From Alphaproteobacteria bacterium (lineage in GTDB: Bacteria; Pseudomonadota; Alphaproteobacteria; RF32; CAG-239): a stretch of 64,000 nt of DNA. A program made the position numbers and the translations under genes. Where the stretch lies: contig JAFVFB010000012.1 of the NCBI GenBank assembly GCA_017475705.1, positions 60,525 to 124,524 of the forward strand, read 5' to 3'. Numbering within the stretch: the stretch's first letter is position 1; every line of letters begins with the position of its first letter. Below, one piece after another: positions 35,457 through 37,679 of this stretch. Below the pieces are notes generated by a model, which worked only from the letters and a program-made list of their open reading frames with translations, ran no database searches and was not told the origin of the DNA.

Positions 35457-37679
35457 ATGGTAAGAGAAAGAGGGAAAGAGTGGGAAGAATATGATAAAGC
35501 CGTCCGGTGGATGGCTACCACGTTTATCATATCTGTCGTGGTCGCAATGGTGCTGGTTTATTTGTCTCAGCCTATAGCCTATCTGGTGCAAAAAGGTGTA
35601 TCCAAAGAAAACGTTGATGTTGCAGTAAGATTTCTGAAAAAATCACTGGCAGATCCCGGATTTTTATATGATAGATATATAAGATGGTTCAAGCAAGCAA
35701 TGCGTTACAGTGGAGCTTTTAAGCCCAGCTTATGGATACCGATATTGCCATTTATAATGTTTCCACTGATATTAATTATTGGAGGCATTAAGTGTCCATA
35801 TAAATTCCAGTCCAATATTCATGGTTCTGCACATATCGCTACTTTAAGAGATATCGAAAAGATGGAACTGCTTGGCTTCGATGGATTTTGCATGGTTGTT
35901 GGCAAGTTCCAAGGTAAGATGTTGAAATTAAAAGAAACATTATCAACACTATGCTGTGCACCTCCTGGTACAGGTAAAACAGTAGGTATTGTTATTCCAA
36001 CAATTTTTAATTCTGAAGGTCTGAGTATCATTGTAAACGACCCAAAACCCGAGTTATGCTACAAAACTACGGGAGCAAGAAATAAAGTTGGTCCGGTATT
36101 TGTTATAAACTGGGGGAAAGAAGATAATCCAGAAACTGGTGAATACTATCCAAGCTGGAACCCACTTTCACCAGGGGCCTTGCCAATGCCTGGTCCAGCG
36201 CGAGATTTGTACGTAGATTCAATGTGTAATACGCTGGTAGAAGATCCCAAGGGTAATGCTGACCCGCACTGGTCAAAAACAGGTCGTAGTGCGTTGTGCG
36301 GTTTCATACATTTTATATCTTCAAAATGCGAGAGAGCTCTTGCTAATGAAAAGTTTATCCAAAAAATTTATGAAGGTTCACTAACAGCAGAAGACAAAGC
36401 AGAATTAATTAATTACTATAGTGACATGAGCATGGGTGGCCTGCGTACAAATGCCGCTCAAGCTATTTCAGATATACAAAATGATAATCTGACTATAGAA
36501 AATTATTTACCGATAGGGACATGGAATCTTCTACCGGAAAAATGGATAAATCATGAACCGTGTATGGCTATGATATTGGAATGGATAACCAGTTCACAAA
36601 TAGAGCAGGCTAATGATATTCGCCGCCGACTGGAAGAAGGTGACCAAATGGCTGCAATGGCAGACCCAATGCGAGATTTGCTAGATGCAGCAGTAGAAGA
36701 GGCGAACAATTATGGTTATTCCCGCCGCTGTGTAACGGAGCTAAGTGCCTTAAGTGCAATGCCGGATAAAGAGCGCGGTTCTGTTTTATCAACAGGTTTA
36801 ACCGGTATTGGTATATTTAAGAACTCAGCCGTCGTTGCCCGAACAAGCTTTTCTGATATCCAATTTAAAGATTTGCGAGGGATGAAAGACCCTGTCACTG
36901 GTGAATGGCGGCCAATTTCCGTATATCTTTCTGTAAATCAAACAGATGCGCAAGCCTTAAATCCTATCAGCGCAACATTCGTAGACTTGATGAGTGCTTA
37001 TTTAATTTCTAATCCACCTAATGCGGTTAATAAATCAGATGGCAAAATGGGGCCATTTCCAGTACTATTTGTGCTCGACGAGTTTCCGCAAATGCCAAAA
37101 TTAAAAGCGGTTATAGACGGTCCTGCTGTTGGTCGTGGTCAAAAGGTTGCATATTTATTGATAGGACAAGATTTAGGGCAAATTTCTGGGAAATACGGTA
37201 AGGATGACCTCGAAACAGTTATCTCAACCACGGCCTGCAAAGTTATCTTATCACAAAACAATGAACAAACCGCACAGCGTTTTTCAAAGATGATTGGTAA
37301 TAAAACAGTACAAACCACATCTTTTTCACGCAGTGAAGGAGGTATAAGCAACAAAGACTTTAATCCATTTTCTAAAAATGTAAGTTACCAATTGCAAGGT
37401 GTCTCAGCCATTAGTACCAATGACCTATTGAGTCTACCGATGCTTAAGCAAGTTGTTTTAATGCAAGGCTACATTGATACACCGATTATGGCAGATTCAC
37501 CTCGTTGGTATCTTGATAAAAAGATGAGAGAGCTGGCATCATTACCTCCATCGCCAAATGTTCCGGACTGGATTGTTGCTCAAAGAACAGATGAAAATGA
37601 AGATATACTGTCCAAACTTGGAATAGATTATGATCCTAATGCAGAAGAAGAGGAAGATTTTGAGGAAGAAGAAAGCTAA
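35457..37679 (+). CDS. type IV secretion coupling protein (VirD4/TraG family ATPase), orphan
   Basis: 740 aa with N-terminal TMs. Carries the HGSAHIAT motif (the family hGSArWA signature), Walker A APPGTGKTVGIVIPT...IVNDPKPE and Walker B VLFVLDEFPQMPKL. The C-terminal tail is acidic ([11 protein letters not shown]). Confidence 0.8.
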   Translation: MVRERGKEWEEYDKAVRWMATTFIISVVVAMVLVYLSQPIAYLVQKGVSKENVDVAVRFLKKSLADPGFLYDRYIRWFKQAMRYSGAFKPSLWIPILPFIMFPLILIIGGIKCPYKFQSNIHGSAHIATLRDIEKMELLGFDGFCMVVGKFQGKMLKLKETLSTLCCAPPGTGKTVGIVIPTIFNSEGLSIIVNDPKPELCYKTTGARNKVGPVFVINWGKEDNPETGEYYPSWNPLSPGALPMPGPARDLYVDSMCNTLVEDPKGNADPHWSKTGRSALCGFIHFISSKCERALANEKFIQKIYEGSLTAEDKAELINYYSDMSMGGLRTNAAQAISDIQNDNLTIENYLPIGTWNLLPEKWINHEPCMAMILEWITSSQIEQANDIRRRLEEGDQMAAMADPMRDLLDAAVEEANNYGYSRRCVTELSALSAMPDKERGSVLSTGLTGIGIFKNSAVVARTSFSDIQFKDLRGMKDPVTGEWRPISVYLSVNQTDAQALNPISATFVDLMSAYLISNPPNAVNKSDGKMGPFPVLFVLDEFPQMPKLKAVIDGPAVGRGQKVAYLLIGQDLGQISGKYGKDDLETVISTTACKVILSQNNEQTAQRFSKMIGNKTVQTTSFSRSEGGISNKDFNPFSKNVSYQLQGVSAISTNDLLSLPMLKQVVLMQGYIDTPIMADSPRWYLDKKMRELASLPPSPNVPDWIVAQRTDENEDILSKLGIDYDPNAEEEEDFEEEES

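Follow-up and report, generated by a model that had tools for sequence, protein, structure and literature searches.

A solitary VirD4/TraG-type coupling protein in a conserved chromosomal operon of gut Alphaproteobacteria

What does a type IV coupling protein (T4CP) do on a chromosome when no secretion channel is encoded beside it? This question is raised by an open reading frame (ORF) of 740 codons in a 64,000-nucleotide stretch of contig JAFVFB010000012.1 (assembly GCA_017475705.1, Alphaproteobacteria bacterium), which we refer to as the window. To our knowledge, the only role established for coupling proteins is that of a substrate gate in type IV secretion and conjugation machines. An earlier note on this DNA had described the gene as encoding an intact coupling protein, GC-richer than its neighbours and ending in an acidic tail. 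What is new here is a solitary, core, operon-embedded T4CP that is accompanied, across a clade of gut Alphaproteobacteria, by a membrane partner with a predicted nuclease fold.

The coupling protein and its conservation

The translated ORF matched three Pfam families well above their cut-offs, namely T4SS-DNA_transf (PF02534; 1.1e-54, 186.5 bits against a gathering cut-off of 20.1), TraG-D_C (PF12696; 1.2e-22, 80.6 bits against 22) and TrwB_AAD_bind (PF10412; 3.4e-19, 69.5 bits against 20.5), the last of which places an all-alpha domain in the protein. The NCBIfam equivalog models compared, which were VirD4 (PRK13897 and PRK13850), IncP TraG, Ti TraG and CD1115, all fell short of their cut-offs, the best being CD1115 (146.4 bits versus 250); the TraG equivalog scored 115.1 bits versus 674, and VirD4 PRK13897, annotated only as type IV secretion system (T4SS) component VirD4 and presumably linked to Rickettsiales, 131.6 bits versus 728. 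A search of the PDB with the single sequence gave no match, while a profile of the family detected only Cag-beta (8DOL, 6e-11) and TrwB (1E9R, 8e-4), with none of the DotL chains in the PDB matched. The protein is a divergent member of the VirD4/TraG coupling-protein family.

The protein begins with two transmembrane helices, continues with a nucleotide-binding domain and an all-alpha region that holds an insertion, and ends in a C-terminal helix and the acidic tail. In a Kyte-Doolittle scan (19 residues, score >1.6), the membrane anchor appeared as two groups of hydrophobic windows, with starts at residues 14-27 and 88-97. For comparison we used 80 orthologous loci, each from a different metagenome-assembled genome (MAG), kept from at least 291 relative-encoding stretches in a species-representative genome collection. 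The four motifs listed in the earlier note (HGSAHIA, APPGTGKT, VNDPKPE and VLFVLDEFP) were all in place and conserved beyond chance, as CAPPGTGKT, NDPKPE, (L/M)F(V/I)LDEFP and also IGQDLGQ were found in 80/80 orthologues. Within HGSAHIA, G123 and A128 are invariant in the clade and H122 and H126 are variable, with R and Q occurring.

The 80 loci come mainly from human, ruminant, mouse and chicken gut MAGs, among whose names are Acetobacter sp. 46_36, Azospirillum sp. 51_20 and Candidatus Scatocola faecigallinarum; an identical T4CP protein was found in MAGs labelled Alphaproteobacteria bacterium, and the clade probably corresponds to the GTDB order RF32. Identity to the window protein is 68-88% for the T4CP, on a par with RpoH (59-91%) and above RluD (56-73%) in the same loci. 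Within the clade, conservation reaches 0.83-0.84 in the nucleotide-binding domain and 39-56% in the membrane helices, and none of the complete orthologues has a shortened reading frame. The ratio of non-synonymous to synonymous substitution rates (dN/dS; Nei-Gojobori, close relatives) was about 0.02 for the T4CP gene, and for its operon partners D, C and A, described below, about 0.04, 0.07 and 0.12, all of them approximate values with dS near saturation. The view that the gene is functional and not a relic is borne out by the invariant motifs, the 83-84% conservation of the nucleotide-binding domain and the low dN/dS, and the gene clearly appears to be functional and under very strong purifying selection. 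Judged from these alignments, it is the most constrained gene of its operon, with conservation at the level of housekeeping genes, and its product is a catalytically competent VirD4-type ATPase whose ATPase site is intact and invariant.

A chromosomal operon apart from channel genes

The T4CP gene is the last of five tightly spaced genes on the plus strand, A-B-C-D-T4CP, located beside rpoH and rluD. This order is kept in the loci that reach far enough among the 80 MAGs, the exceptions concerning gene A in three unusual loci, and the rpoH and rluD flanks are the same in at least 67 loci. Because the gene order is the same, the GC content tracks that of the host and codon usage is ordinary (see below), the operon is vertically inherited and fixed on the chromosome of a gut Alphaproteobacteria clade, as seen in about 80 species.

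To look for a channel, we searched the window and 88 related loci (1.70 Mb) by tblastn (E <=0.01) with VirB and relaxase query sets from Sphingosinicella p1, which is the nearest plasmid relative, from the gut-metagenome VirB cluster L097 and from plasmid R388, and only T4CPs matched. Apart from a minority without a match, the genes of the window are housekeeping or general cellular genes, including tolQ/tolR, UDG, glmM, lpxC, a recN-like gene, tgt, an RND efflux system, rpoH, rluD, ligA, infC, fba, glycogen phosphorylase, sucCD, sufS, lpxD and bamA, and none of the annotated genes in the 64 kb belongs to a T4SS or relaxase family. Since the window also holds no integrase, relaxase or mobile-element gene and the locus is syntenic core chromosome, it is not an integrative mobilisable or conjugative element. 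Genes A-D had no Pfam match to Dot/Icm families, and no TraM, IcmS, IcmW or DotM homologue was found nearby.

A search of 1.84 billion representative proteins returned full-length relatives at 27-52% identity, and we checked the genomic context of five of them. P0271 (52% identical) lies among housekeeping genes and is preceded by a D homologue overlapping the T4CP start (lineage L093), and P0122 (49% identical, from a 'Rickettsiales' MAG) lies between ruvB and tyrS. In P0124, P0141 and P0309 (30-40% identical), a pentapeptide-repeat protein takes the place of D directly upstream, and the neighbourhoods contain obg, rpmF-plsX and hfq-hflX, or FTHFS, or carD. No VirB gene was found within 10 kb of any of the five. 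The pentapeptide-repeat proteins are 345-409 aa long and mutually homologous (L084 8772-10001, L088 8958-9995, L094 8788-9978). Their family includes DNA mimics, and such partners are compatible with a DNA-directed T4CP motor.

The nearest VirB-linked relatives lie directly after virB11 in VirB(2)-B4-B8-B9-B10-B11 clusters, and comprise three alphaproteobacterial plasmid T4CPs (31-38% identity to the window protein) and the P0126 group (44-46%), which is chromosomal in one gut MAG. In GCA_947457935.1, contig CANGXP010000001.1 (132 kb; L100 1-12040), a VirB4-B8-B9-B10-B11-T4CP cluster that looks complete directly adjoins hemB, lolCD-like genes and dnaE, and among VirB-linked relatives it is the T4CP of this cluster that comes closest to the window protein. 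We built a neighbour-joining tree from 627 columns with TrwB as root and 100 bootstraps, in which the gut clade was monophyletic (bootstrap 100) and joined P0271 (92), and all solitary T4CPs formed one clade with a moderate bootstrap of 75, with the P0126 group as its sister (56) and the plasmid VirD4s and IncP TraG outside both. The window protein branches apart from the T4CPs of VirB clusters and is not a recent paralogue. Taken together, the tree and the contexts indicate that the solitary lineage descends from VirB/D4-type coupling proteins and lost its linkage to channel genes long ago. A search of a viral collection returned no relative of the T4CP, and among plasmid T4CPs identity to the window protein does not exceed 38%.

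The earlier note had also called the gene GC-richer than the flanking ORFs. This holds against the immediate neighbours (0.402 versus 0.319-0.349), but the excess is modest against the 53 ORFs of the window (mean 0.360, sd 0.029; z = 1.45), among which fba (0.436), tgt (0.406) and lpxD (0.405) are comparably or more GC-rich; GC at third codon positions (GC3) is likewise close to the ORF mean (0.320 versus 0.284, sd 0.033; z = 1.1). The excess lies mostly at the first and second codon positions (GC1 and GC2), and in synonymous codon usage the gene ranks 15/34 among window genes of at least 250 codons. Across 67 loci spanning a GC content of 0.31-0.53, T4CP GC tracked locus GC (r = 0.97) with a constant offset of +0.048 (sd 0.015), and T4CP GC3 tracked that of rpoH and rluD (r = 0.93). 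In these loci T4CP GC3 exceeded rpoH/rluD GC3 by a mean of 0.07, which could be an expression-linked codon bias or a strand effect. Since the GC offset is stable across hosts, there is no trace of recent acquisition, and the excess reflects the amino-acid composition of a constrained protein in AT-rich hosts. Of the two explanations previously offered for the composition, strong constraint therefore fits the data, while a separate origin is contradicted by the constant offset and the ordinary codon usage.

Partner proteins, the C-terminal tail and neighbouring genes

The protein encoded by gene D consists of a transmembrane hairpin (residues 1-94), a Lys-rich juxtamembrane segment, a disordered linker in which HALFNFDDDDFDLDFD (residues 180-197) is invariant, and a C-terminal domain (residues 268-430). 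This domain is extremely conserved and includes GDWLADEE.FN.EEPLWFSESSHR.SPV, with D292, D307, E309 and Q368 invariant. D is present in every locus reaching it and also in the sister lineage L093 (5.7e-60), where the end of D overlaps the T4CP start. The core of the domain was modelled by AF2 with a pLDDT of 85-90, and its top Foldseek matches in the PDB, at weak scores, were NucS/EndoMS, R2 endonuclease, Nt.BspD6I, RecU, FokI and Card1, nearly all of them PD-(D/E)xK nucleases; a D profile gave no meaningful match in the PDB. The model and these matches, weak as their scores are, suggest a NERD-like domain of the PD-(D/E)xK fold, in which D292, D307 and E309 could form a variant metal site or an inactive site. 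A variant site would be comparable to the deviating nuclease signature of BamHI.

The small membrane protein C is present in nearly all loci. Profiles of C and D matched each other reciprocally (1e-18 to 1e-24), with the C profile reaching the D proteins at 1e-18 to 1e-23 and the D profile matching 23/25 C proteins, so that the C hairpin is a paralogue of the N-terminal membrane domain of D. The N-terminus of protein A is acidic and disordered and contains four LDxF motifs and an EDEFxxLLNDFI helix; the all-helical domain after it (about residues 151-340) is conserved and was modelled by AF2 with a core pLDDT >90. Protein A was found upstream of the T4CP in all loci reaching it except the three unusual ones, at 36-70% identity; a fold search of the PDB returned only generic helical bundles, and a profile search of the PDB no meaningful match.

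At the position of B, every locus has an ORF of 427-727 aa, whose sequence similarity is lost beyond the closest relatives. B diverges far faster than A, C, D and the T4CP, and is unrecognisable between sub-lineages. The earlier note had referred to a J-like neighbour of the T4CP, a description for which we found little: the Pfam DnaJ match to B was below threshold (E = 0.0018, 18.8 bits versus a cut-off of 27.8), the protein reads KHKQD at the expected HPD site (placed by eye, unaligned), and nothing corresponding to its J-like N-terminal segment is seen in the six other B proteins shown from a 25-locus alignment. We therefore rejected a J domain in B.

Relative to P0126, its VirB-linked sister, the T4CP carries an insertion of about 63 residues, as BLASTP aligned the two proteins in two segments, query residues 105-290 with subject residues 103-288 and query residues 354-720 with subject residues 289-663; the wider all-alpha region (residues 291-430) is conserved at 0.68 in the clade. 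Nearer the C-terminus, residues 701-722 are conserved at 0.81, and all 80 orthologues have the stretch ...ED(I/M)L(S/A)KLG(I/L)(D/E)Y(D/N)P before the tail. The strongly acidic tail itself, already pointed out in the earlier note, is variable in sequence (0.49) yet acidic throughout the clade, with 5-14 D/E and 0-2 K/R in the last 20 residues of 80/80 orthologues, and usually one Phe in the acidic run. It is missing from P0126, the plasmid relatives and the solitary relatives P0271 and P0122, recurs independently in the P0124/P0134 group of proteins of about 1000 aa, and co-occurs with genes A, B and C in the data examined.

A D/E-rich C-terminal domain is a common feature of T4CPs through which partners are recognised, for example TraM by TraD and IcmSW by DotL (PMC7434980). 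By analogy, the tail is plausibly a docking site, ordinary in kind and lineage-specific in detail. Binding of the tail to the upstream acidic disordered region of A, which the earlier note had raised, is unlikely because both charges are alike; a basic surface, for which the KKK-rich segments of C and D or protein B would qualify, is a more likely partner than A. Short acidic motifs with Phe recur in the operon: A has four copies of LDxF as well as DDDGFDLEDEF (30257-30637), D has FDDDDFDLDFD (34682-34735) and the T4CP tail has EEEEDFEEE (37638-37676). A regular expression for such motifs, chosen post hoc, gave 11 matches in 2418 aa, against a background of 0.71 per 1000 aa elsewhere in the window, and the motifs of A, D and the T4CP may represent a shared docking motif.

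Features of the T4CP and of its operon, with positions in the window
Feature	Position	Strand	Residues or remark	Basis
T4CP, VirD4/TraG type, 740 aa	35457..37679	+	ATG start	ORF, Pfam, family profile, conservation
T4CP N-terminal transmembrane helices, two			residues ~20-42 and 89-113	hydrophobicity
HGSAHIA motif	35820..35840	+	residues 122-128; conserved core xGSAxxA	
Walker A APPGTGKT	35958..35981	+	residues 168-175; identical in 80/80 orthologues	
VNDPKPE motif	36033..36053	+	residues 193-199; NDPKPE identical in 80/80 orthologues	
Insertion in all-alpha region, ~63 residues	36327..36515	+	residues 291-353	comparison with P0126
Walker B VLFVLDEFP	37062..37088	+	residues 536-544; LDEFP identical in 80/80 orthologues	
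C-terminal module	37557..37676	+	conserved NVPDWIVAQR... stretch, then acidic Phe-containing tail (residues 728-740)	clade alignment
Gene A, 375 aa	30245..31372	+	first gene of operon	locus comparison, AF2
Gene B, 710 aa	31462..33594	+	mostly helical/disordered, fast-evolving	locus comparison
Gene C, 163 aa	33598..34089	+	small membrane protein, two-helix hairpin with WHFDI...W..GG	profile
Gene D, 430 aa	34145..35437	+	membrane-anchored	profile, AF2, Foldseek
Downstream membrane protein, ORF of 272 aa	37630..38448	+	overlaps T4CP 3' end by 50 nt (37630-37679)	

The true start of the downstream 272-aa ORF is probably further in. Over its overlap with the T4CP gene, it reads the codons of the acidic tail in another frame as Lys-rich, and at its other end it overlaps the 3' end of the convergent ligA gene by 38 nt (38411-38448). 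A homologue follows the T4CP in 33 fetched related loci, so the gene is a lineage-variable addition, and neither Pfam nor PADLOC matched its product. An unrelated gene pair (201 and 153 aa), absent from the window, replaces it in 10 genome loci that represent one sub-lineage, and also in L093; the pair is located at 12242-13283 in L085 and at 12265-13334 in L093, and its first protein is His-rich (THPTHNNLH / QHPFHEDLHH) and might bind metal. About half of the related loci (L085 5067-5354 and 36 others) have an ORF of about 95 aa (Pfam DUF6476) between rluD and A, for which tblastn found no match in the window.

Two further genes of the window drew attention. The sucC gene (55285-56493, minus strand), for the beta subunit of succinyl-CoA ligase, is split by a single in-frame TAA at 55693-55695 (...YGFQYK*LDHGIG...), with both halves in the same frame, which reflects a nonsense mutation or a pseudogene, or otherwise an assembly error. 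At 41577-46046 (plus strand), an unusually large 1489-aa protein fuses two GT2 domains, a GT8 domain and an ATP-grasp (TupA-like) domain.

Possible function and comparison with known systems

We favour, with a probability somewhat above one half (about 0.55), a domesticated chromosomal T4CP module that handles DNA at the inner membrane. In such a module, the T4CP hexamer would assemble in the inner membrane together with the paralogous hairpins of C and D, and the nuclease-fold domain of D, on its linker of about 150 residues, would bind and hold DNA at the membrane or nick it. The T4CP would receive this DNA, or a nucleoprotein, and pump it using ATP, and its acidic Phe tail would dock on a basic partner surface provided by the Lys-rich segments of C and D or by B. 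Passage of the substrate into a VirB-type channel encoded elsewhere, and action of the module without any channel, stand at about even odds. More tentatively, a VirD4-type ATPase may have been domesticated into a T4SS-independent, near-housekeeping machine of the inner membrane, in which a T4CP hexamer, together with a membrane-tethered PD-(D/E)xK protein or, in sister lineages, a DNA-mimic-like pentapeptide-repeat protein, translocates or processes DNA to serve the cell, for instance in DNA export or uptake or in the handling of the chromosome. If true, it would make this the first T4CP to work outside type IV secretion.

Several points weigh against the proposed module. We know of no characterised VirD4-type T4CP that works without a VirB-type channel, and the operon contains no outer-membrane conduit; the VirB search covered the window and the related loci, and a VirB or Trb system may be encoded elsewhere in the genome. 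The bootstrap of the solitary clade is moderate, and the dN/dS values are approximate. Co-transcription from A to the T4CP gene is inferred from the close spacing and from a promoter/terminator scan, which found no terminator-like site on the plus strand inside the operon but is otherwise uninformative, its counts being at shuffle expectation. As for D, the Foldseek scores are weak (E 0.014-0.6, probability up to 0.99), the Pfam NERD model matched 11/25 members below threshold (best 8e-4) and none on the window protein, and the acidic triad D292...D307-(K/R)-E309 has no canonical lysine, position 308 being K or R.

A conventional role is a possibility to be taken seriously, at odds well short of even: the protein may serve a VirB/D4 (or Trb) T4SS whose genes lie elsewhere in the genome, scattered much as in the rvh system of Rickettsiales, with A and B as effectors or adaptors and C and D as receptor accessories. 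Its canonical architecture, including a membrane domain of the type that normally contacts the channel, would suit this role, as would the acidic tail, acidic T4CP C-termini being known substrate and adaptor docking sites (PMC7434980). The nearest VirB-linked T4CP, 44-46% identical, belongs to a chromosomal VirB4-B8-B9-B10-B11 cluster of a gut MAG, which fits such a role in principle, but this cluster already has its own adjacent T4CP, and about 85 lineages have no VirB gene within 10 kb. Rapid evolution, as seen in B, is common among effectors; the T4CP, on the other hand, is conserved at the level of housekeeping genes. In addition, the T4CP stays inside the T4SS gene cluster in the rvh, cag, X-T4SS and Dot/Icm systems, which counts against a coupling protein displaced from its channel genes.

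The remaining explanations are less compatible with the data. It is improbable that the operon is a membrane-anchored defence or anti-conjugation module, in which the translocase and the nuclease would capture DNA entering through the inner membrane and destroy it there. The operon does place an FtsK/T4CP-class ATPase beside a protein of predicted PD-(D/E)xK fold, and NERD-type nucleases occur in some defence proteins; however, no PADLOC model matched the T4CP, D or A, B and C gave only marginal matches (E = 0.003-0.005), no mobile-element genes lie nearby, and a fixed syntenic core locus beside rpoH with dN/dS of 0.02-0.12 is unlike the variable defence islands. A functionless orphan left by a decayed conjugative or mobilisable element, as the absence of relaxase, VirB4 and integrase genes around this lone T4CP could suggest, is very improbable given the invariant motifs, the dN/dS of about 0.02, the full-length frame in all complete orthologues and the same genomic position in about 80 species, and contamination by copies of a single recent element is incompatible with the GC range of 0.31-0.53. 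Least probable of all is a recently acquired foreign gene. The 1-kb segment 36001-37000, with a GC content of 0.420, is indeed the second highest of the whole stretch, but the GC1/GC2 excess is matched by other conserved enzymes, codon usage is typical, the offset from the host is constant, and the viral and plasmid comparisons revealed no close relative (no viral match; plasmid T4CPs <=38% identical).

The locus thus leaves two readings of general interest: either the T4SS genes of abundant, uncultured gut Alphaproteobacteria are unusually dispersed, or a T4CP motor has been re-used beyond secretion. Either of them would provide a first function for the four families A-D.

We found no description of the module in the searchable literature. 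The coupling proteins Cag-beta (Cag5) of Helicobacter pylori and TrwB of R388 have the T4CP nucleotide-binding fold in common with the window family, at a great distance, and unlike the window protein they work within complete T4SS gene sets. Dispersed T4SS genes have a precedent in the rvh system of Rickettsiales, an alphaproteobacterial case in which the genes are vertically inherited, chromosomal and scattered; rvh virD4 stays adjacent to virB8-virB11.

With respect to the tail, the nearest parallels are TraD of the F plasmid, which binds TraM, and DotL of Legionella, which binds IcmSW, both of which dock partners through an acidic C-terminal extension (PMC7434980). The DotL extension is long, whereas the tail of the window T4CP has only about 13-20 residues in a C-terminal part of about 40 in all. 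We rejected assignment to either type: for F-type TraD, TIGR02759 scored 35 bits versus 521.35 and there is no TraM-like neighbour, and for the DotL/IcmO type, the family profile matched only Cag-beta and TrwB, the C-terminal part is about 40 residues long, and A-D had no Dot/Icm Pfam match.

A T4CP gene beside one for a PD-(D/E)xK DNA-processing protein is known from CloDF13, where MobB is encoded with MobC, and from TraX of pAD1, the DNA-processing proteins being MOBC relaxases (PMC12857230). The likeness to the CloDF13 pair is that of a coupling ATPase beside a restriction-endonuclease-fold protein, with the fold of D being predicted. A MOBC mobilisation module was rejected, and the likeness is one of analogy only: the D profile reached a best E of 0.58 against six-frame translations of CloDF13, the record of which is poorly annotated and apparently frameshifted, a tblastn search of 72,556 PLSDB plasmids with the D domain gave no match, and the locus is not mobile. 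Unlike the MOBC relaxases, D is anchored by a hairpin, has a long disordered linker and belongs to a fixed chromosomal core locus.

The closest context-checked relatives are the alphaproteobacterial VirB/D4 T4CPs of Sphingosinicella p1, an Erythrobacter aureus plasmid, a Thalassospira plasmid and GCA_947457935.1, with identities of 31-46% to the window protein; the Sphingosinicella plasmid match has E = 1e-95, and the best segment of P0126 has 2e-112. They have the same domain order, and P0126 and the window T4CP have in common the Walker A motif APPGTGKT and the LDEFPQMPKL region. These relatives directly follow virB11 in VirB2-B11 clusters, some of them with a relaxase, whereas the window T4CP follows A-D and differs from them by its insertion of about 63 residues and its clade-specific acidic tail.

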